From Escherichia coli (GTDB taxonomy: Bacteria > Pseudomonadota > Gammaproteobacteria > Enterobacterales > Enterobacteriaceae): a stretch of DNA of 64,000 bases. A program made the translations under genes and the position numbers. Below the pieces are notes generated by a model that saw nothing but the letters and a program-made list of their open reading frames with translations, did no database searches and was not told the origin of the DNA. Below, piece after piece: positions 24,466 to 36,218 of this stretch. Position 1 is the first letter of the stretch, and the number at the start of each line of letters is the position of its first letter. The DNA lies in NCBI RefSeq assembly GCF_003018235.1, contig NZ_CP027437.1. One strand, given 5' to 3'.

Positions 24466-25029
24466 TCACGATTGCATATTTTTAGTGAAGATTAATTTAT
24501 CCTCACCAACATCATAGTAATTGCGTATTATAGCTTCATTGATAAAGCCCTGTTTTGTATAAAATGCGCGGGTGGCACTAAAATCGACATAGCTGGAGGT
24601 CTCTACTAAAAGTAGTCTTGCGCAGGGAAAGGAGAACGCACTAATGACATGAATCGCTCCCCTGCGGCGACTCTTGTCATAAGAATGCCGGAGCGTTTTT
24701 CCATCAATTGCAATAACGTCTTTATCATCTGAAGAATGGCAGTCACGCATCCAGTTAATAAAGCACTCGTGAAATTTTGCAGGACTGATACAGGATACAA
24801 CTCTGGCAATGGTATCGTGAACAGAAATACCATTTTCAAAATCACCATATTGCTTCAAAAAATCGAGATGTGTTTCCCCAAAATCCTCTATATCTTCCCA
24901 GCCTTCTGCACCAGAAACAACGGCACAAATAGTCAACAGTAGAATATCAGACAATTTATATTCCACTTTCCAGGCTTGTCTGTAATCGGGGATAATAGAA
25001 ATATGTTCCATCAATTTTTTAAGTTCCAT
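24466..25029 (-). pseudogene. Truncated H-repeat (ISAs1-family) transposase N-terminus (~137 codons, 24619-25029) fused in frame to an unrelated ~50-codon 3' remnant
   Basis: [50 protein letters not shown]... matches H-rpt proteins up to ...AIHVISAFS, then diverges to ...[15 protein letters not shown]... (GNAT-like C-terminus). Confidence 0.75.
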
Positions 25030-25274: not shown

Positions 25275-25559
25275 TTAGACTTCTTCTATTTCATATTTTA
25301 TAGACAATTCATGAAAGGCAGTAAATACCAGTGAAAATAATTTATCTCTATCACTTCCATTTAAATTATTTACAATGAAAAAACCATCCTCATGATCTTC
25401 TATTGAAAAATCAATCCAGTTTGAATAACTAGATGGAATCCAAAGTGAACCATCAGTATTAATCCGAGAGGATGGTTGATTTTCTTTTATTCTCTCGACA
25501 ATAAAAGAAAGTAAATTATCTACTTTATCATCAACATGTATAATATATTCAACACTCAT
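25275..25559 (-). CDS. Putative immunity protein for the orphan Rhs toxin tip (94 aa)
   Basis: Small AT-rich ORF 12 nt downstream of the orphan rhs-CT; no recognisable domain. Confidence 0.55.
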   Translation of the reverse strand: MSVEYIIHVDDKVDNLLSFIVERIKENQPSSRINTDGSLWIPSSYSNWIDFSIEDHEDGFFIVNNLNGSDRDKLFSLVFTAFHELSIKYEIEEV

Positions 25560-25571
25560 TAATTTCTTGCC

Positions 25572-26024
25572 TTATGCGCCGCACCCATGGGCTCGCCCTC
25601 GTTTTGTAGGATAATCATTTGGATTCCTGATCCCTATGTGTGTTTCATTCGGATTAGTACTCGGAATGCCTCTGTCATTCAGAGGTACCTCACCGGGATC
25701 ATATTTATGCACATGTGCGTTAGCCCCAGACTTAGGTAATGGATCACCGTTTTTCATCGTCATACTTTGATTTCCATAGGGATCGACACGAACTTTAGAG
25801 CCATCAGCGTGACTCCATGTCTGATTCCCGGTACTTGTTTGTTTATCCAAATTGAATCCATTATCAGTAAGAATAGAACCTATTGCCCCTGGGGATCTTC
25901 CTTTTAATTGAGGCAAATCAGAGGCGGCACTTAATCCAAGAGGATCTATCCATCCAAGAGGGTTAGGCGCATAAGCATACAGGTTTAACCCACCCGCCAG
26001 CCCTATCGGATCAGTACACAGATA
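25572..26024 (-). other. Orphan rhs C-terminal cassette: core-end remnant (DPIGLAGGLNLYAYAPNPLGWIDPLGL) plus a distinct ~115-aa toxin tip; no canonical start codon
   Basis: Frame is open from the stop at 26027-26025; 25931-26010 is nucleotide-homologous to 27001-27080 of the main rhs; track ORF start is a non-ATG (TTG) codon. Confidence 0.75.
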
Positions 26025-26138
26025 TTACCACGTCTCGCAATCATAGTACCGGAACCGATGATAGTACAGTCCCGCGTCATGCTATTAAAGACAATGTAGT
26101 GCGATGATATGTGTCATCCCTCAATTATTTTTATAAAA

Positions 26139-26645
26139 TCATATATTATCTTCCTGTTGCAGGAATTGATTATAAAAAGATAGTTTTTTATCTAAAAATA
26201 AAAAGTGATACCCAACCGACTTTAGATCATTATTTATGACAGATAATAACTTATTCCATTCATAGATATATTTATATTTATTTACAAGCAATACACTTTT
26301 ACTAGAATTTAAATTAAAAAGTTCATCCGTGTTTATGGAGATCCATTTTGAAAAAATTTCAATATTCTTTTTATCTATTTTAACATCTAATAATACCGTA
26401 AAGGATTCACATAAGAAATTGCATTCAAAGTTAAACCCGGAGATGATACCATCAAGCATTTTGATAATATCATCAATGATTTCACTCAGGCTATTAAGTG
26501 TTAGTGAAATATGAACGCCATTCCAGTTTATATAAAAACACCCGGATGATATGGGATATGCGGAAAATATAGCCTCCGATAAATTAATATCCTCTTCATC
26601 CATGAGGCCTTTTTGATAAGTATCATCAATTTCTATTTTGAACAT
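26139..26645 (-). CDS. Putative Rhs immunity protein (168 aa from ATG at 26645)
   Basis: ATG lies 1 nt after the rhs TAA stop (TAATATG); AT-rich; position typical of rhsI. Confidence 0.65.
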   Translation of the reverse strand: MFKIEIDDTYQKGLMDEEDINLSEAIFSAYPISSGCFYINWNGVHISLTLNSLSEIIDDIIKMLDGIISGFNFECNFLCESFTVLLDVKIDKKNIEIFSKWISINTDELFNLNSSKSVLLVNKYKYIYEWNKLLSVINNDLKSVGYHFLFLDKKLSFYNQFLQQEDNI

Positions 26646-26646
26646 A

Positions 26647-29600
26647 TTACTTACCCTTTTCATAAATGGGGCCTGCTGTCGATGAATCAATTGGGAAACC
26701 GTGAAAAGTCCCATCCCCATTATTTCTGACCCGAATTTTATCCGGTTTAATAGGTACTCCATTTCCTCCGGGAATATAAACTTCACTCTTACTATTTTGA
26801 TTTATAGGAAAATCTTTCATCTCATCCGGTTTTAGCGTGGCAGCTTGTTCTCCAGCATATTTCAGATCATCCTTGCTTCTCCAAACTCCATGAGGATTCT
26901 TTTCTTTATCTGCAATTGCTTGAGCTGCGTTAGGATGTAGTTTCATCCCATGCCTTTTCCCTCTTGAGTAACCATTCTCGGCTTTTAAGCAGGTGGGATT
27001 TAATCCAAGAGGATCGATCCAACTTAAAGGATTCGGCGCATAAGCGTACAGGTTTAACCCGCCTCTCAGCCCTATCGGGTCCGTTACCATGAACCGCCCG
27101 ACATCCGGATCATAGTACCTGTGCAGATTGTAGTGCAGCCCCGTTTCCCTGTCGAGGTACTGTCCCTGGTAGCGCAGGTTCTGCTCCACCCCGCCGTGGT
27201 CCTTCTCCTGTATCGTGTTACCCCAGACCTGATACCCCGTCTCCCACACGATTTTCCCGTCACTGTCCGTCATCTCTTCCGGCGCGCCGTTCACATCCGT
27301 GTGAAAATACAGTATCCGGTTCAGGCCCTCTTTACCCACCTTATCCACCCGCGCCAGCGGTTCATAACTCCCCGGGTCGCTGTAGATATACAGGCTGCTT
27401 ATTCCCTCCGGCCTGCTCTCCTGCGCCAGCCGCATTCCGTCCCATAAAAATGTCGTCCGGTTGTACGGTTTACCGTCAGGGCTGATGTGCTGTTTTTCCG
27501 TCCGCCTCCCCAGCGCATCGTACACATACCGGTACGTTCCCCGCGCTGTCGTCACTTCCACCATCCGGTGTTCCGCATCATAACGGTAACTCTGCGTGCC
27601 GCTCCGGCCCTCCTTTTCCACCGCACGGCCAAATTCGTCGTAACGGTAGTGCACACCACGGTAAGACATCAGCCGGTTGAACGGCACCACGCTGTTTTCT
27701 GCCGTGGCCCTTTCCCCCGCGCGCCGCGCCAGCAGGTTTCCCGCCGCGTCGTACTCCCAGCTCGCCAGATACCCCTCATCCTCCGAGCGGCACGCCGTGA
27801 TGCGCCCCGTGGGGTCGTAGAAGTAATCCGTTTCCCCCCGCCGGCTGTGCCGCGTCTTCAGCAGTTCATCCTCGCCGCTGTAGCTGTACTGCCGGTCCGT
27901 GAACGTCTCCGGTACCACCCCGCGCATCCCGCTGTATGTCTCCCTGCGCTTCAGCCGCCCGGCGGGGTCATAAAGCTGCCGCGTGCTCAGTCGCCCCTGA
28001 CTTCTGAGCACTTCCCGGTGCAGGGCGTCACGTGTGAACTCGCTGATGACCTCCCGGTCCAGATTTATCTGCTGGAGATGGCCGCTGCCGTAGTACAGAT
28101 GACGCTGCGTTCTGCCGTCCGGAAAGGTGGTGGCTGTCCGGTTGCTGAGTTCATCGTACTGATGGGTCAGGACGCCCTGCGCCGTCTCCTCAGTCAGCAT
28201 CCGCCCCAGTCTGTCGTAACTGAAGCGGATAATCTCCGGTGCGTCCATTTCCCCGGCATCCGACCGTCGGCGGCGGATTTCCAGTAGCTGGTCTGCCGCA
28301 TCATGGACGTATTCCGTACGGCTATCGGCTGTCTCCTTTGCCGTGAGCCGGCCCGCCGCATCACGTGCCAGCCGGTGGCGGATTTCACCGCCCCGGTCCC
28401 CTGTGAACACCACTTCCGTGACCGCGTTCAGCACGTTGTAACGGTACGTCTGGCGGCAGCCGTCCGGATTTATCTGCTCCGCCAGACGGTCCAGCACATC
28501 ATGGCGGAACCGGTAGTTTTCTCCGTTCTCGTTCGTGAGCGTGACCAGACGCCCGTAAGCATCGTACCCGAACGCCGTCCTGCGCCCCGTCGCGTCTGTC
28601 CGGCTGCGCACCCGGCCCTGCCCGTCCCGCTGCCAGCGCGTTATCCTCCCCATCGGGCTGGTGTACTTCACGAGCCTGCCCGCCGCGTCCGACTGGTAAT
28701 TCACCGTGCGGCCGTCCGCCAGTATCACCTCCGTCAGGTGGCCGCTGTCGTCATACCCGTAGCGCGTGCTGTGGCTCTGCGCGTCTGTCATCCGTATCAG
28801 CCGCGTGCGTTCGTCGTAGAACCAGGCCGTCTGCGAGCCGGAACAGTCCGTGTGCCGCATGAGCTGTCCGTCTTCGTTCCACTGAAGGTATTTATTCCCC
28901 CCGCGCGCATCCGTTATCTGCACCACCTGACCGTGGCGGTCATACTGATACCGGGTGTTCTGCTGCAGCGGGTCGGTCACCGCAAGAAGATTGCCGCGTT
29001 CATCGTACTCACAGCACCAGCTGTTCCCCGCCGCGTCCACCTCCGTTTCCGGCTGGTGCCACACCGGGTGCCACTGTGTCTGTGCCACCCGCCCCAGCGG
29101 GTCGTGCGTCTCCGTGATATGCCCCTGCCGGTCATACACATAGCGCCATTTGCCGCCCTGCGCATCGGTCATTCCCAGTAACAGCCGTTCTTCGTCGCTC
29201 CAGCGGAACGTCGTCACCTGCCCGGCTTCGTCCTGGTACGCCGTCACCTGGTTCTGCGCGTCCCACTGATGATAACGCGTGCGCCCCAGCCCGTCCGTCA
29301 CGCACAGCCTGCGTGCCGCGAGGCTCCACGCCAGCCGGTACTGTTCACCGCTGTCCGTGTGGTGCCCCGTCACCCGCCACGCTGCGTCATCCGGGCCTTC
29401 ATACCAGCCCCACTGGTAATAATACCCTTCGCCGCCCGGCTGGCGGTGCAGGGTCATGCAGTGGTTTTCGTCGTAAGCAAACTCGCGCAGCAGGTGCCCC
29501 GTGCTGTCGTACACGCCGTTCAGGTCGCCGGCCTCGTCATAGCGGTAACGACGCAGCAGTAAAGGAGCCGTCTCAGGGAAATGCTGATAAATCTGTGTCA

Positions 29601-31311
29601 CCCGCCGGGGATGCGCCGCCAGTTCATAATGCAGACGGATGCACGGACGCTGCTGTTCACCGCTGATTTGCGTGATGCGTCCCCGGTCGTCGTAGTACAG
29701 ATTCAGACAGTTGCTGTTGCGGTCGCCCAGCATTTTCAGCCGCTGGCGCTGCGGGTGACGCGGGTCGGCCTCAAACAGAAAAAACTGCCCGTCATCGCTG
29801 CTGATAAGCCAGTGCCCCTGCTCACCCCGCCGTACTGCCAGTCCTTCGCCGGGGCTGTAAAACCCGCTCCCCGGCAGCACGGCCTCCATATCCAGACGTC
29901 GTCCCATGCCCGACACAAAGGTCATACAGTTTTCGTCAGCAGTACCCGGCGTGCGCTCGAGGCTGACTTCATACATCACGCTCCAGCCCTGCCCGAACAT
30001 CCCTTCCGTGCGGTCGTCACGACTGCTGTACACGCGCTGCCAGTCCAGCGGAAAGTGGCCCGGCAGACTGAAATCGAAGTCATCGTCATCCGCCAGATAT
30101 TTGGCTCCGGTGGCGGCATTGACCGGATGCGGAAGGGCACTGATGGCCTTCTGCGTCATCACCCCCATCCCGACACTGGCAGCAAAACAGGCGATTTTAG
30201 AAAGCATTTTGCCCGGGCGAAGAAACATCAGCGCCACGGTTGCCACCAGGGTTATCTGCGACCTGCCGCTTCTGATATCCCTGACCACCAGTAACGGACC
30301 GCCAATGCGGACATCCGGTGACACAAACGCCCCGTTCCCCGGCTCATTCACCACCCTGGCCTCGCAGGTACAGCGTGCCCCGCTGCGCGCCGCCGGCTGG
30401 CTGTTGATACGCACATCCCGCGCGCCTTCCGCGATATATTCCGCTGCGGGCGGTTCATCATCGCCTTTGAACAGATTACTGATGCTGCCAATAACCGCAT
30501 TCACTCCCTGAAAGGCGGTTTCCAGCATACCGCCCGGACTCAGCAGGTTAAGGGCCGTTCCCAGAGGGTCATCCAGAAAGGCGGCTTTTTTTTGTGCGAG
30601 AAACTGCGTCAGTGAGGAGGGATGTTTATGGCAGTCGATTTTATCGTCAGGGGTCGGGGTGGAGCCCGGGGCCGCACTGGCCACGGTGGGCTGCCATAGT
30701 TCCGACACAAAATGTGTCACGCCATCCACCATTTCAGAACGCCCTTCTTCCGTACTGAGCTGGTCATGCAGCGCCCGGGACATCAGCACAGGCCCTGTCA
30801 CCGGGTTAACCGCCAGGGCTATGGCCCCCGCCATTTCCAGATATTCCCCGGCCACATCCCGGAACGTTCTGGCGTCCTCCTGACGCTGCGCTTCTTCCTG
30901 TTCCGCCTTCGCCTGTGCCTCCTGCGCCTCAATGTCCTGCCGCGATGCCGCAGTCGCCGCGGCCCGCGCGGCAGGTTTGCTGTTGATCCATGTGTCGCCA
31001 GAGCCGGTGAGGATGTAACCTTCAATCTGAGGCGGGAAAAGCCAGTTCGCCAGTTGCTCACTTTCCCTACTGATTCGGTCATTCCAGCCCTGATACGACA
31101 TAAATACCGCTGTTGCTATACCGATCGCTAAAATGGTTGAGCAGCCCAGCGTTGCCACTTCAACTCCGCCCAGCGCCGCCATGGTTCCGACAACCAGAAC
31201 ATCCACCAGGGCTGTGGCGGCAACCTCTACAACTGCCCCCAGCACATCTGCCATAAACGACGTATGCAGCAGGGCATCACCCTGCCTTGCCGCCCAGAAT
31301 GCCTCTTCCAT
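26647..31311 (-). CDS. Rhs-family polymorphic toxin / T6SS effector (1554 aa): prePAAR motif, N-terminal TM region, PAAR region, YD-repeat shell, PxxxxDPxGL, ~110-aa C-terminal toxin tip of unassigned family
   Basis: N-terminal AARQGDALLH motif; hydrophobic segment ADVLGAVVEVAATALVDVLVVGTMAALGG...; two PAAR tetrapeptides; numerous YD repeats; DPIGLRGGLNLYAYAPNPLSWIDPLGL before the tip. Confidence 0.9.
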   Translation of the reverse strand: MEEAFWAARQGDALLHTSFMADVLGAVVEVAATALVDVLVVGTMAALGGVEVATLGCSTILAIGIATAVFMSYQGWNDRISRESEQLANWLFPPQIEGYILTGSGDTWINSKPAARAAATAASRQDIEAQEAQAKAEQEEAQRQEDARTFRDVAGEYLEMAGAIALAVNPVTGPVLMSRALHDQLSTEEGRSEMVDGVTHFVSELWQPTVASAAPGSTPTPDDKIDCHKHPSSLTQFLAQKKAAFLDDPLGTALNLLSPGGMLETAFQGVNAVIGSISNLFKGDDEPPAAEYIAEGARDVRINSQPAARSGARCTCEARVVNEPGNGAFVSPDVRIGGPLLVVRDIRSGRSQITLVATVALMFLRPGKMLSKIACFAASVGMGVMTQKAISALPHPVNAATGAKYLADDDDFDFSLPGHFPLDWQRVYSSRDDRTEGMFGQGWSVMYEVSLERTPGTADENCMTFVSGMGRRLDMEAVLPGSGFYSPGEGLAVRRGEQGHWLISSDDGQFFLFEADPRHPQRQRLKMLGDRNSNCLNLYYDDRGRITQISGEQQRPCIRLHYELAAHPRRVTQIYQHFPETAPLLLRRYRYDEAGDLNGVYDSTGHLLREFAYDENHCMTLHRQPGGEGYYYQWGWYEGPDDAAWRVTGHHTDSGEQYRLAWSLAARRLCVTDGLGRTRYHQWDAQNQVTAYQDEAGQVTTFRWSDEERLLLGMTDAQGGKWRYVYDRQGHITETHDPLGRVAQTQWHPVWHQPETEVDAAGNSWCCEYDERGNLLAVTDPLQQNTRYQYDRHGQVVQITDARGGNKYLQWNEDGQLMRHTDCSGSQTAWFYDERTRLIRMTDAQSHSTRYGYDDSGHLTEVILADGRTVNYQSDAAGRLVKYTSPMGRITRWQRDGQGRVRSRTDATGRRTAFGYDAYGRLVTLTNENGENYRFRHDVLDRLAEQINPDGCRQTYRYNVLNAVTEVVFTGDRGGEIRHRLARDAAGRLTAKETADSRTEYVHDAADQLLEIRRRRSDAGEMDAPEIIRFSYDRLGRMLTEETAQGVLTHQYDELSNRTATTFPDGRTQRHLYYGSGHLQQINLDREVISEFTRDALHREVLRSQGRLSTRQLYDPAGRLKRRETYSGMRGVVPETFTDRQYSYSGEDELLKTRHSRRGETDYFYDPTGRITACRSEDEGYLASWEYDAAGNLLARRAGERATAENSVVPFNRLMSYRGVHYRYDEFGRAVEKEGRSGTQSYRYDAEHRMVEVTTARGTYRYVYDALGRRTEKQHISPDGKPYNRTTFLWDGMRLAQESRPEGISSLYIYSDPGSYEPLARVDKVGKEGLNRILYFHTDVNGAPEEMTDSDGKIVWETGYQVWGNTIQEKDHGGVEQNLRYQGQYLDRETGLHYNLHRYYDPDVGRFMVTDPIGLRGGLNLYAYAPNPLSWIDPLGLNPTCLKAENGYSRGKRHGMKLHPNAAQAIADKEKNPHGVWRSKDDLKYAGEQAATLKPDEMKDFPINQNSKSEVYIPGGNGVPIKPDKIRVRNNGDGTFHGFPIDSSTAGPIYEKGK

Positions 31312-31329: not shown

Positions 31330-31782
31330 TTAATTCGTCCCGGCTTCCTGCCGCATCCTGAAGCGCAGATTCTTTTTAATTTCAGCCCAGCGCGTCATAT
31401 CTGCCGGGGTCAGCGGTGTGGTTCTGGCGTAGGTGAAGGCCATCATGACCCGCTCACCCGGCAATACAAATGCCACCTGACACTGGTACACCTGCTCGTT
31501 ACCCCGGAGAAACTGGCTCTGTATTTCCAGTCCTTCTTCACCGTCATTAATCCCCACCCGTGTTACCTGAACGGGCGTGTAGTGAAGATCCTTTACCTGT
31601 TTCTCCAGTTTTTTCATTTGCTGTTCAATCTGGGAGGCTAATTCGTCTCCTTCCTGCATCTGGCCCCGGCTGATAATGAGTGCAGCGTCGGGATCGCTGA
31701 GGCGCAGCATATTAATAGTACTGTCCTGAATAATATTCCCGGAAAAAGTTACAACAGTTTCATTGAGATAATACTCCGTCAT
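31330..31782 (-). CDS. DUF1795/Eag-family chaperone for the prePAAR effector TM domain (150 aa)
   Basis: Size and position between vgrG and the prePAAR rhs match Eag chaperones; family assignment is by context and recall, not by search. Confidence 0.65.
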   Translation of the reverse strand: MTEYYLNETVVTFSGNIIQDSTINMLRLSDPDAALIISRGQMQEGDELASQIEQQMKKLEKQVKDLHYTPVQVTRVGINDGEEGLEIQSQFLRGNEQVYQCQVAFVLPGERVMMAFTYARTTPLTPADMTRWAEIKKNLRFRMRQEAGTN

Positions 31783-33763
31783 AATGATATGAGTCCTTTT
31801 AAATTAATAAATTATTTAATGATGGTTTTTGTTTATTTTTTAGTCATGAAGGCGACATCTATCGCCAATTGAAGGGCTGTTTTTTCCGATGTTCCAGGCG
31901 GAAGTATATCTGCCGCCCTGTTATTCATATTTAAATCAAGCTGACCTGATTGTGTATTTATCTTTCCATTTTCTGTTGCAGTAATATTAAAATTCTTACA
32001 GGTTATATTAAATATTCCGTCACTGGTCATTTGCAGGATAGTGTTCCCACAACTAAGAATTATGGAATCTCCCGCAGCAAGGCGTAAATTCTGTACGGCC
32101 TGAATCGTTTTATTTTGTCCGGCAAGGGAGGTATCATCCATCTGAACTGTAAGAGAACGTTCCTCACCAATTATCGCTGTTTCTGTTTTATCAATGACTT
32201 TAAGGCGATTATTGCCCACCCAGTGGCTTTCATTATTATTTACTTCAATCCGCTGATCTTTTTCGGCATGTAGCCAGACCTCTTCACCGCCAGGTTTATC
32301 CTCAAAACGTAGTGCGTTGGCATTGGTTGGGCCGCCGCCGATAGTGTGACTGTAAAATCCGCTTTGCGTCGCTGCGCCCGGTAGTCCCCACGGTGGCATG
32401 GTGTCCTGGTTGTAGGTACGCCCAACAATTATCGGTAAATCCGGATCACCGTTTTTGAAATCCACCAGTACTTCCTGACCAATGCGCGGGATCTGAATGC
32501 CACCGAATCCTTTACCCGCCCACGGATAACTGACACGGACCCAGCAGGAACTATTTTCGTCATTCTTACCGTAACGATCCCAGCCAAACTGAACTTTCAC
32601 CCGGCCATATTTATCTGTCCAGATTTCCTGCCCTGCCGGGCCGGTGACGATGGCGCTCTGCGGGCCTTTAGTGTGGGGTTTGCTCAGGGTTCGTTGTGGG
32701 CGGTAAACTTCGCTGGTGGGATGCAGTTCAAAGCTGGTTGAGTAAGAGAAATGCTGCTCCTGGCCGCTGTGTTGCGCATTGTCCTGTATAAATAGCGTGG
32801 TCTGTACCAGCAGATATTCCCGGTTCACTTCGGCTGTCGGATAGTTTTCCAGGATGAAGGTAAAACCTGTCATCAGGGTACGAATATTGCCGCTGCCCTG
32901 TACCCGACTACCTGGGCTACGCTGTTCTTCCATGCGAATGCGTGTCAGCATTTCACCTTCACTCTTTGTGAAGTAATCTCCCGGCCATTCGTAGTGCTCA
33001 TATTCAGCAAGGCCGGTTTCACGCGGATTAGCCACGGTGCTCTTCAGCAGTGAACGCGGCTTCATAAAGTCGAAATCATTCAGCACCCACTGTCCACTGC
33101 GCAGACTTTCATTTGCTGTGATGGTATGGATAAACTCCTTGTCCAGTTTCAGCCCTTTCTGGTAATAACACACCAGCGGCGAATCTGCGCATGCCTTGTG
33201 GACATTAATGGCATCAGCCAGCACTAACGTGTGACTGTTCTCGCTGTGCTCAAACCACCAGTAGATACCCCACTCCTGCATCAGGCGCTGAACAAAATCG
33301 AAATCTGTTTCACCGTACTGCACCTGCCAGGCGCGAGTCGGATAATTTTCCACCAGTCGTTTTTCCACTGGCCAGGGGTACTCATCCAGTACCTCATCCA
33401 GGATCTCCACCACGTTTTTATTCTGAAACGCTTTGTAGTCACTAGTGTGGGTCAGTATTTTTAACCACGGTTCGAGCCGCAGTTCATACACCACCGAACG
33501 TCCTTGATGACCAGCCACGCGTGCCGCCGTCACCAGCCCGCTGATATAACGTTTTCCGCCGCCATCCAATTCGATATTGACGCACAGATCTTTGCCCACC
33601 ATCGGTTTGAGCTGCAGGTTGGCTGCGGGGGAAACATAGCCCAGGTTCAGGATGTCAGGAGTTTTTAATTTAATAGAATAAGTAAATAGTTCCCCTACTG
33701 TTTCTGTACCCCCTAAGCTTGCAAACAGTAACATGATCCTACCCACGTAATGTGGACACGGCC

Positions 33764-34618
33764 CTAAGCGAGATTATGGTTTTCAAATTGTTCCGGGCTG
33801 AGACCGCCACAGGCACTGTGACGACGCCAGCGATTGTAATCACTCTCGATATAATTAAACACCGTTGCCCGCATTATTTCCCGGCTGCTAAAGCGTTCCC
33901 CGTGGATACATTCCACCTTCAGCGAATGAAAGAAGCTTTCCACACAGGCATTGTCATAACAGTAGCCTTTCGCACTCATACTGCCACGCAGGTTGTGTCG
34001 CTTCAGCATTGCCTGATAATCCCCTGAACAGTATTGACCACCACGGTCCGTATGAACAATGACGTTTTCCGGGCGTCTTCTCCGCCACAACGCCATTTGC
34101 AGTGCATCACAGGCCAGTTGTGCTGTCATTCGCGGTGACATCGACCAGCCAATGACGGCGCGTGACCACAGGTCGATGACTACTGCGAGATACAACCAGC
34201 CCTCATCGGTACGCAAGTACGTGATGTCACCCGCCCACTTCTGGTTCGGGCCACTGGCGCTGAAGTCCTGCTCCAGCAGATTCTCCAATACGGGCAGGCC
34301 ATGTGCACGGTAGCTGACCGGGCTGAACTTCCGGCTGGCTTTCGCCCGCAGCCCCTGACGACGCAGGCTGGCGGCAATGGTTTTAATATTGAACTCCGGC
34401 AGTTCGTCAGCAAGGCGGGGAGCACCGTATCGCTGCTTTGCCTCAAAGAATGCCTTATGGACAGCGGCATCGCAGGTGAGCCGAAACTGTTGGCGCAGGC
34501 TCATCTGGTGACGACGCCTGAGCCAGACATACCAGCCGCTGCGGGCAACCCGAAGTACACGACACATCGCTTTGATGCTGAACTCTGCCCGATGATTTTC
34601 GATGAAGACATACTTCAT
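33764..34618 (-). CDS. insF: IS3 transposase OrfB (DDE integrase core; made by -1 frameshift from OrfA)
   Basis: rve-domain sequence ...[34 protein letters not shown]...; overlaps orfA end. Confidence 0.9.
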
Positions 34619-34914
34619 TTCAGGCGCTTCGCGAAGTATGTCGCGGCCTTTTGGAGGATGGCCAGTTCCTCAGCCTGCTCCGCCAGTTGTCGTTTAAGGC
34701 GGACATTTTCAGCGGCCAGTTCGCTTTCGCGCTCTGACGAACTCATTTGTTGCTGCTGTTTACTGCGCCAGGCATAAAGCTGAGATTCATACAGGCTGAG
34801 TTCACGGGCTGCGGCGGCCACACCGATGCGTTCAGCGAGTTTCAGGGCTTCGTTACGAAATTCAGGCGTATGTTGTTTACGGGGCTTCTTGCTGATTGAT
34901 ACTGGTTTTGTCAT
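34615..34914 (-). CDS. insE: IS3 transposase OrfA (99 aa)
   Basis: [52 protein letters not shown]... Confidence 0.9.
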
Positions 34915-35295
34915 GAGTCACCTCTGGTTGAGAGTTTACTCACTTAGTCCTGTGTCCACTATTGGTGGGTAAGATCAACATTCCATCAGGAACTGCGCTG
35001 CCGCTCAAAGTCACGTTATGTGTACCCGATCCAGTTAGTGCGCCGGATGGATAATCTGTAGCTGCAAAACTCATAATTAATCCTTTTAACTAGAAATGGA
35101 TAAGTGCTAATAAGAAATCTTACAGAGAATAAAATATGCAATATATTCGTAGCTGGCATAAAACATCTCAATACTTATGCGTGCTACTGAAGATACTATC
35201 AACCATATATGCCTTGAAGAATGCACCGTCATGTTAACCTGGTGGAAACATTCACCTAAAGTACATTAATAAAACTAATAAAATTATTTAATTTG

Positions 35296-35652
35296 TTATT
35301 TGATATGATTATCATCAAGTCTTAAAATACGTTCTCCGGTTCTAATTATGTTAAAACCATAGTATTCTTTTTTACTTTCGGAAGAGAGCATATATTTCCC
35401 GATATACATAACATCTGAAGATAGCTCACTTATATCAATACATACGGGTTCGAACTGACCTGTCACTCTTTTCAACTTTATTGCATTGCCATATTTACCT
35501 TCATATAAAACATAATTTGAAATAATATTCCCATCGTCTGGTTTTGAACAAATCTGTCCGTCTTGCAAATATACACTACCGGGTAACAATGGGCGAACAT
35601 AATCACCAACAGTGCATCCCGACAAAAAGAAAAACAAAAAGAATCTCTTCAT
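35296..35652 (-). CDS. Predicted outer-membrane lipoprotein (118 aa); candidate immunity protein for the upstream HExxH protein
   Basis: Signal peptide plus lipobox MKRFFLFFFLSG-C; Thr at +2; ATGA overlap with the upstream gene. Confidence 0.7.
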   Translation of the reverse strand: MKRFFLFFFLSGCTVGDYVRPLLPGSVYLQDGQICSKPDDGNIISNYVLYEGKYGNAIKLKRVTGQFEPVCIDISELSSDVMYIGKYMLSSESKKEYYGFNIIRTGERILRLDDNHIK

Positions 35653-36218
35653 ATGACACCCGCAGGAAATAAATTAAGCACCTTTTTGTATTTTTCCGAT
35701 AGAGTGTTCACTGATTCAGTTGTATCACCTACATAGTTAACATTTGCCAAATCAGCCACCAGTCCATAGTTAATTAATAGCCAATAATCAGCAACTATAG
35801 ATGCTTGTTGTTCCATGGAATAAGAAGAAATTGACTGTAAATTAAGATCGTAATGATAATTTGCCGCCCAAGAAAATAAACCACGCAACTTAACTGCATA
35901 CCCTTTCTGATATTGCCAAACATGCATCATTTCATGAATAAACAAGTGAGAAGCACCTGCTACTGTTTCACGATCACCAGGCATTGCTTGCGATGAATAA
36001 TCTGAACTATAAACAGCATCAGGATAATACATTTCCCCGTTTGGGGTCATCGCTGTTCTTTCCCCTTGACCAGGCAAATATTTTTCATTGTGGATCCATA
36101 CCTTGCTATAATCAATTGTATTCTCAAAAATCGATCTGGCCAATGTTAATTCACCAGATGTCATTCTCCTTAATGACATATCCTTTCCCCTGGAAATAAT
36201 ATCTTTCAGATAAAACAC
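35649..36218 (-). CDS. DUF4157-like zincin metallopeptidase-fold protein with HExxH motif (189 aa); candidate antibacterial effector
   Basis: Motifs IDYSKVWIH ... GEMYYP ... SHLFIHEMMHVWQYQ; no signal peptide; translationally coupled to the lipoprotein ORF. Confidence 0.65.
   Translation of the reverse strand: MFYLKDIISRGKDMSLRRMTSGELTLARSIFENTIDYSKVWIHNEKYLPGQGERTAMTPNGEMYYPDAVYSSDYSSQAMPGDRETVAGASHLFIHEMMHVWQYQKGYAVKLRGLFSWAANYHYDLNLQSISSYSMEQQASIVADYWLLINYGLVADLANVNYVGDTTESVNTLSEKYKKVLNLFPAGVI

Follow-up and report, generated by a model that had tools for sequence, protein, structure and literature searches.

We analysed a 64,000-nucleotide stretch of Escherichia coli DNA (contig NZ_CP027437.1 of assembly GCF_003018235.1, hereafter the window) that carries, on its minus strand, a gene for a type VI secretion system (T6SS) effector of the Rhs kind. 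The gene is an open reading frame (ORF) of 1554 amino acids (aa) at 26647-31311, and its last 117 residues (1438-1554; 26650..27000, minus strand), which have an isoelectric point (pI) of 9.35, form the toxin tip. The reading that we favour, with a probability of about 0.7, makes this tip an endoribonuclease, small and basic, from the RNase A-like/EndoU/Ntox50 branch of the BECR fold; it is placed in the BECR RNase toxin superfamily because of its predicted fold and conserved histidine motifs. An original prediction, made from the letters alone, had described a complete class I prePAAR effector module with some 110 residues after a DPLGL motif and a toxic activity that it simply called unknown. 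Every element that it described was found at the coordinates it gave. The tail does begin directly after DPLGL, its exact length being 117 residues, and fold and histidine motifs now point to an activity for it. The module is not complete, because the insertion sequence (IS) ISEc16 interrupts the cognate vgrG gene 31 codons after its start.

The toxin tip and its predicted fold

The claim that the tip matches no sequence-profile toxin family held up in every search. Pfam returned nothing even at E <= 10, NCBIfam gave only a chance match at 0.05, and a phmmer comparison with the sequences of the PDB gave none. With a 55-member family profile, the sole PDB match was alkaline phosphatase (E 0.25), at noise level, single-sequence PDB searches with two distant family members returned none, and a literature search with motif strings such as TFHGFPI found no papers. 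Relatives of the tip are numerous: a word-indexed search found nine, and when a profile was run over 1.84 billion representatives, 173 clusters came up at E <= 1e-3, 100 of these reaching E <= 1e-10. In 149 of the 157 relatives retrieved the domain ends at most 10 residues from the C-terminus, in carriers of up to 3635 residues, and the domains found upstream of it by Pfam in 110 full-length members include PT-HINT, RHS, the eCIS core, DUF4280 and a type VII secretion system (T7SS) signal. Because of this C-terminal location and these polymorphic-toxin modules upstream, we regard the relatives as a bona fide polymorphic-toxin tip family, which is spread across Proteobacteria, Bacteroidota, Firmicutes and others. 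The tip in the window conforms to it: it forms the very C-terminal end of its protein, behind a processing motif, and varies independently of the core. Two of the 110 full-length relatives matched Ntox1 (PF15500, E 4e-7), a family for which the signature C, C, H, E has been described together with delivery by Photorhabdus virulence cassettes (PVC) (Zhang et al. 2012); six outlier toxin domains and neighbouring small ORFs, searched in concatenated form, gave no Ntox1 match, and the Ntox1 domain is probably a separate one further upstream.

Structure prediction, proposed as a check with the original prediction, gave a confident result in one respect and a weaker one in another. The AlphaFold2 model of the tip, computed from a 10-sequence alignment, reached a predicted local distance difference test score (pLDDT) of 90.9 and a predicted template modelling score (pTM) of 0.83, with the five models ranging from 87 to 91, and shows two helices, a short strand and a third helix, followed by a four-strand meander. 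Comparison with the PDB by Foldseek put RNases, chains of 5E3E and 9V8I, on top, but not significantly (E 0.25-0.37, TM-score ~0.47). Against AFDB50 there were 38 matches at E < 1e-3. In this set, UniProt gives neighbours of 26-38% identity the name of a "Bacterial EndoU nuclease domain" or a "Bacterial toxin 50 domain" protein, and one that is further away the name of a "Bacterial CdiA-CT RNAse A domain" protein. Some relatives of the tip therefore already bear the EndoU (PF14436) name, including the Enterococcus rotai protein ALS37732.1 (P0063), both an AFDB50 neighbour and a member of the tip family; despite its name it has no match to the Pfam EndoU hidden Markov model (HMM). The predicted fold of the tip is RNase A-like.

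Two histidines stand out in the family. Counting Rhs residue 1438 as tip position 1, these are the candidate catalytic residues His1454 (tip His17; codon 26950-26952, minus strand), within K-R-H-G, and His1537 (tip His100; codon 26701-26703, minus strand), within H-G-F-P on the last strand. Among 55 diverse members, His17 is conserved in 53, His100 and Pro103 in 54 each, Glu8 (Glu1445) in 51, Asp45 (Asp1482) in 50 and an arginine or lysine at position 92 (Arg1529) in 51. Lys1452 and Arg1453 are also conserved, and a lysine or arginine occupies position 16, ahead of His17, in 47 of the 55. The family signature is K-[KR]-H-G, a spacing of 83 residues, and H-G-[FY]-P lying from a few to ~18 residues from the C-terminus. 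CdiA-CT Ykris, described below, has a pair of N-proximal histidines 5-6 residues apart (H170/H175); the window tip has a further histidine, H22, next to H17, but H22 is not conserved in the family, where lysine, threonine or glutamine is commonest at that position.

The top three PDB fold matches are all experimentally shown RNases. CdiA-CT Ykris of Yersinia kristensenii 33638 (5E3E) is presented in its report as the first bacterial protein with an RNase A fold and was shown to be an RNase by experiment (PMC5435912). MafB2-CT of Neisseria meningitidis (8HHJ) is an RNase whose toxicity requires H335, H402 and H409 (PMC9970974), and YxiD-CT of Bacillus subtilis (9V8I) is a tRNase with an active site made of K446-H447, H521, K524 and H528, the last in an HxVP motif, in which H447A and H528A relieve toxicity (PMC12700104). 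Ntox50 toxins in general have one N-terminal histidine and a second, C-terminal one in HxVP (Zhang et al. 2012), and EndoU and RNase A-like toxins form one superfamily with an aromatic-Pro motif on strand 6 (Mushegian et al.). Compared along the sequence, the K446-H447 and H528-I-V-P531 elements of YxiD are analogous, not identical, to K-[KR]-H-G and H-G-[FY]-P of the tip family, and the two histidines stand 83 residues apart in the tip (His17-His100) against 81 in YxiD (H447-H528). The two-histidine signature also parallels the H12/H119 layout of RNase A and the aromatic-Pro motif of strand 6.

There are also differences from these enzymes. CdiA-CT Ykris (PF18431) is only 9% identical to the tip and has no HMM match with it; it has Thr276/Tyr278 where the tip family has the near-invariant histidine of H-G-[FY]-P. 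It is delivered by contact-dependent inhibition (CDI, a type V secretion system, T5SS), whereas the tip belongs to an Rhs protein of the T6SS, and its immunity protein CdiI is all-helical by its published description. Ntox50 (PF15542) has no HMM match in any member of the tip family, with HxVP in the former and HG[FY]P in the latter. As none of their HMMs matches, we do not file the tip under the EndoU, Ntox50 or CdiA-CT RNase A families of Pfam, and place the tip family, which is absent from Pfam, within the same fold superfamily as an undescribed sister family. The PAAR-Rhs toxin of Salmonella bongori (8QJC) offers a parallel: it too has an Rhs tip of ~110 residues without a Pfam family, the best match of its AlphaFold model is likewise 5E3E, and its authors likewise inferred an RNase (bioRxiv 10.1101/2024.02.26.582050). 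That the window tip is the S. bongori toxin was ruled out, there being no sequence relation between them in tip or profile searches; the match of the whole Rhs protein to 8QJC stops at residue 1438.

The immunity gene and the tip cassette

Two bases after the rhs stop codon, an ATG at 26645 opens a gene for a protein of 168 aa (26139..26645, minus strand). With a pI of 4.55, where the tip has 9.35, this protein is acidic, and it lacks a signal peptide and any transmembrane (TM) or hydrophobic segment, which fits an inhibitor that acts in the cytoplasm on a basic enzyme of nucleic acids. Close homologues of the protein are confined to E. coli and Salmonella, and in all six of the E. coli and Salmonella loci examined such a homologue directly follows a copy of the toxin, usually as an orphan cassette. 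In three Salmonella enterica loci with Rhs arrays of the Salmonella pathogenicity island 6 (SPI-6) type (L002-L004) and in three E. coli loci (L005-L007), the pair forms an orphan cassette that lies downstream of a different Rhs gene; compared with the window, the toxins of these orphan pairs are 95-97% and the immunity proteins 80-89% identical. Two E. coli loci keep an intact immunity gene, but the toxin match there ends at residue 79. The window cassette is fused to the main Rhs core, an example of tip displacement by recombination.

The linkage extends well beyond the enterobacteria. ORFs located right after distant toxin homologues encode proteins of 163-179 aa that are homologous to the 168-aa protein, in Chryseobacterium oryctis, in a second Salmonella paralogue and in Enterococcus rotai. 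Since toxin and immunity homologues are adjacent across phyla, the pair is inherited as a unit, and this cross-phylum linkage is strong evidence, drawn from gene order and homology, for the 168-aa ORF as the immunity gene cognate to the toxin. The immunity family has no match in Pfam or NCBIfam, and no solved structure matches it by sequence.

The boundary of the cassette is sharp. Similarity of the window to other E. coli genomes ends exactly at 27001, the last base of the DPLGL codons, and there the GC content drops from 0.56-0.65 to 0.30-0.39. The DNA of tip and immunity gene was found in none of 5426 complete E. coli genomes, its sole trace being a piece with 70% identity inside a different Rhs gene of strain AR_0077. 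In 188 of the same 5426 genomes almost all of the query region is present between yddH/nhoA and ansP, in most cases with an identity of 95-99%. The locus is a vgrG-eag-rhs-immunity island between yddH/nhoA and ansP on an E. coli-type chromosome, at what we take to be the rhsE position of K-12, and a conserved core with a swapped tip cassette, as read from these comparisons, is the usual Rhs pattern.

Effector architecture, the interrupted vgrG and the island

As the original prediction held, the protein of 1554 aa is a class I prePAAR Rhs effector, and its architecture is that of the textbook. Its N-terminus (MEEAFWAARQGDALLH) contains the prePAAR motif AARQGDALLH (residues 7-16; 31264..31293, minus strand), which fits the AARxxDxxxH definition (PMC7773334). 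A single TM region of two hydrophobic helices follows (residues 17-73; 31093..31263, minus strand). It was called by a Kyte-Doolittle hydropathy scan rather than by a dedicated TM predictor, and is the sole stretch above 1.5 within the first 460 residues, with a 19-residue mean of at most 2.3. The PAAR domain (residues 97-321; 30349..31023, minus strand) has its two tetrapeptides at 113 and 306 with an insert of ~170 residues between them, and matches the Pfam PAAR_motif (PF05488) at 291-321 (E 2.2e-5) and, weakly, at 97-118. The insert (residues ~120-290, window ~30440-30950) includes a coil rich in acidic residues and glutamine, AQEAQAKAEQEEAQRQEDA, as well as a stretch of moderate hydrophobicity. 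Behind the PAAR domain lie the plug region DUF6531 (residues 395-473; 29893..30129, minus strand; Pfam E 7.3e-19) and the YD-repeat shell with the Rhs-associated core (27001..29892, minus strand), in which NCBIfam recognises RHS_core (also YD_repeat_2x), 11 YD repeats and Rhs_assc_core (TIGR03696, at 1360-1437). The core ends with DPIGL at 1411 and DPLGL at 1433-1437, and Asp1411 is predicted to form the aspartyl autoprotease pair with Asp1433.

Between vgrG and rhs, 18 bases upstream of the latter, lies a gene for an Eag-type chaperone of the DUF1795/DcrB family (150 aa; 31330-31782, minus strand). A profile search bears out the proposal that this ORF is DUF1795/Eag-like, with a match to Pfam DcrB (PF08786), presumably the former DUF1795, at E 1.1e-18. 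Its match to the SciW structures 6XRB/6XRR is weak (E 0.0025; residues 32-124 on 35-127, same length) but covers the same span. Class I prePAAR effectors combine a single TM region and an Rhs cage with a cognate Eag chaperone, whereas class II effectors have two TM regions (PMC7773334), and the window locus shows these class I features of Ahmad et al. (2020): prePAAR within the first ~20 residues, one TM region, PAAR and an Rhs cage, and a neighbouring eag gene. An intact cognate vgrG, a further feature, is lacking, and N- and C-terminal autoproteolysis is represented by its sequence signatures (see below).

The closest solved protein is RhsA of Pseudomonas protegens (PDB 7Q97), which aligns over Rhs residues 287-1447 (E 0). 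The two proteins have in common prePAAR, one TM region, PAAR, the plug signature HP...AK...DDD, the YD cocoon and the DPxGL autoprotease, and the two loci share an adjoining DUF1795 chaperone and a vgrG upstream. RhsA is cleaved N-terminally between H304 and P305, at a site that includes A312, K313 and D318-D320 (PMC8765631); by comparison with it, the window plug carries the class I N-terminal cleavage signature at H395-P396, A403-K404 and D407-D410. The RhsA autoprotease pair D1324/D1346 corresponds to D1411/D1433, with a spacing of 22 residues in both, and it is from such signatures that both self-cleavages of the window protein are predicted. The window protein differs in having ~156 more residues ahead of the alignable region, PAAR tetrapeptides ~190 residues apart, another toxin tip and another immunity protein, and its vgrG is broken by ISEc16. 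Rhs effectors with interchangeable tips are already well understood, so the architecture itself brings nothing new.

The proposal of a complete effector module fails at vgrG. The 5' stub of this gene (MSFAATDYPSGALTGSGTHNVTLSGSAVPDGM, the first 31-32 codons; 34977..35074, minus strand) is severed from the rest; translated, it gives exactly the N-terminal residues of VgrG from E. coli R32_14_1F, which is intact at 664 aa. ISEc16, an IS3-family element of 1243 bp (33734..34976, minus strand), sits within the gene, with TG...CA ends and a 3-bp ACA target duplication; we read its junctions by comparison with the intact locus L001. Its transposase ORFs (34615-34914 and 33764-34618, minus strand; NCBIfam transpos_IS3, E 2.9e-96) lie on the same strand as vgrG, and annotated ISEc16 copies from many E. 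coli genomes share 99% identity with the element. The 3' part (31833..33733, minus strand) corresponds to residues 32-664 of the intact protein, is 97% identical to L001 vgrG and matches TIGR03361 VI_Rhs_Vgr at E 5.4e-167, from model position 12 onwards; the 637-aa ORF, as listed, takes its start from a GTG that lies within the end of the IS. The cognate VgrG gene is thus split at codon 31/32, and the remaining product lacks the first conserved strand. In a megablast search, ISEc16 matches elsewhere, e.g., in strain 536, run 15 bases into the vgrG-side flank; this extension hints that the same insertion may exist in a vgrG elsewhere.

This break counts against the view of the locus as a working RNase weapon, since delivery in the window strain is doubtful unless another VgrG substitutes. 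At somewhat less than even odds, the module is stranded or decaying, the split vgrG leaving an Rhs protein that could be neither mounted nor fired in this strain. The rhs and immunity genes would then persist solely as a reservoir for recombination or to confer immunity to kin. The insertion with its target duplication 31 codons into vgrG and the loss of the first conserved strand from the remaining ORF speak for such a fate, as do the ISAs1 remnant and the orphan cassette carried by the island (see below); among the long ORFs of the window, which are unannotated, there was also no sign of T6SS core genes. On the other side, the eag, rhs and immunity ORFs are all full length and intact, an in-frame ATG (Met32) is kept at the IS junction, and further VgrG paralogues may exist elsewhere in the genome. 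Moreover, as the IS genes share the direction of the operon, eag, rhs and the immunity gene may still be transcribed by read-through. The disruption bears on function in the window strain and not on the identity of the rhs gene, and a stranded module would be compatible with an RNase tip, as it concerns deployment rather than what the tip is.

The island holds several further elements. An orphan rhs-CT cassette at 25275-26075 consists of a core remnant (GLYYHRFRYYD...) with an in-frame stop, a basic tip ORF (25572-25916, 114 aa, pI 8.8) and an acidic partner ORF (25275-25559, 94 aa, pI 4.4); neither ORF matches Pfam or NCBIfam, so the cassette is a second toxin-immunity pair without an assigned family. 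At 24466-25029 there is a transposase remnant of the ISAs1 family (ISEc1/H-repeat), of which only about the first 134 residues match, with an unrelated C-terminal tail fused to them; the element is intact in the reference locus. Upstream of vgrG, two small minus-strand ORFs (118 aa and 189 aa, within 35296-36218) may be another effector-immunity pair of the island, the 118-aa ORF giving a weak match (32 bits, cut-off 43) to NF045617, "putative T6SS immunity periplasmic lipoprotein", and the 189-aa ORF being without an assignment.

Weighing the RNase reading

Several observations tell against an RNase assignment of the tip. Foldseek support from the PDB is weak (E 0.25, TM-score 0.47), and no sequence profile links the tip to any named RNase family: PF14436, PF15542 and PF18431 match neither the tip itself (E <= 10), nor the 55 trimmed members (E <= 0.1), nor the 110 full-length members (among the 20 families listed for them). 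The third Ntox50 histidine (YxiD H521, MafB2 H402) has its counterpart, by counting along the sequence, seven positions before His100, where 34 of the 55 members have an asparagine. The pair His1454/His1537 was assigned by position and conservation and not from model coordinates, and for every member of the family RNase activity is deduced from fold and motifs only. A match of the tip to a well-characterised toxin domain, named in the original prediction as the finding that would speak against it, is in this sense approached by fold and motif but not by a high-confidence sequence match.

These points leave some room for an RNase-like scaffold with another activity, be it that of a DNase, of a nucleotide- or cofactor-degrading enzyme, or of a non-catalytic binder of the translation machinery. 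The lack of an RNase-family profile match and the missing third Ntox50 histidine would agree with it, and EF-Tu can be an additional binding partner of BECR-type Rhs toxins (Rhs2, bioRxiv 10.64898/2026.05.10.723254). We consider this quite improbable, as the best structural matches are all RNases and the tip family has two near-invariant histidines where RNase A-like and Ntox50 enzymes put base and acid. Least probable of all is that the fold match is spurious and the tip a truly new type of toxin, as first supposed, even though no Pfam, NCBIfam or PDB sequence matched, the model came from 10 sequences and the PDB comparison was not significant.

An endoribonuclease tip would fit a mechanism, suggested by work on RhsA and on SciW-Rhs1, in which the Eag chaperone protects residues 7-73, with the prePAAR motif and the one TM region, and a VgrG spike carries the PAAR domain as its cap. 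The tip would be enclosed by the YD-repeat cocoon after two self-cleavages, the first after Leu1437 by Asp1411 and Asp1433, the second between His395 and Pro396, and after firing the TM region would help the tip into the target cytoplasm. There His1454 would act as the general base and His1537 as the general acid, and cleavage of a presumed tRNA, rRNA or mRNA substrate would stop translation. The 168-aa protein would neutralise the tip, probably by covering its RNA-binding face.

The tip is now assignable, with a testable RNase hypothesis in which His1454 and His1537 are catalytic, in a family of at least 173 sequence clusters. It is conceivable, but unlikely, that this family is a widespread bacterial RNase clade with a true RNase A-type histidine pair, in which one histidine would stand before the first strand and the other in the last strand beside the aromatic-Pro motif. 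If this were true, the layout would be nearer to that of vertebrate RNase A than the layout of Y. kristensenii CdiA-CT. Together with an immunity family of its own that also spans phyla, the clade would be a useful link in the debate on a bacterial origin of RNase A, and a new toxin-immunity family for Pfam. That a complete-looking module can be disabled by an IS in its spike gene matters for counts of effector repertoires based on genomes. The main value of the analysis is a concrete, testable annotation for a widespread and so far unannotated toxin-immunity pair, whose immunity family is seen in four genera of three phyla.

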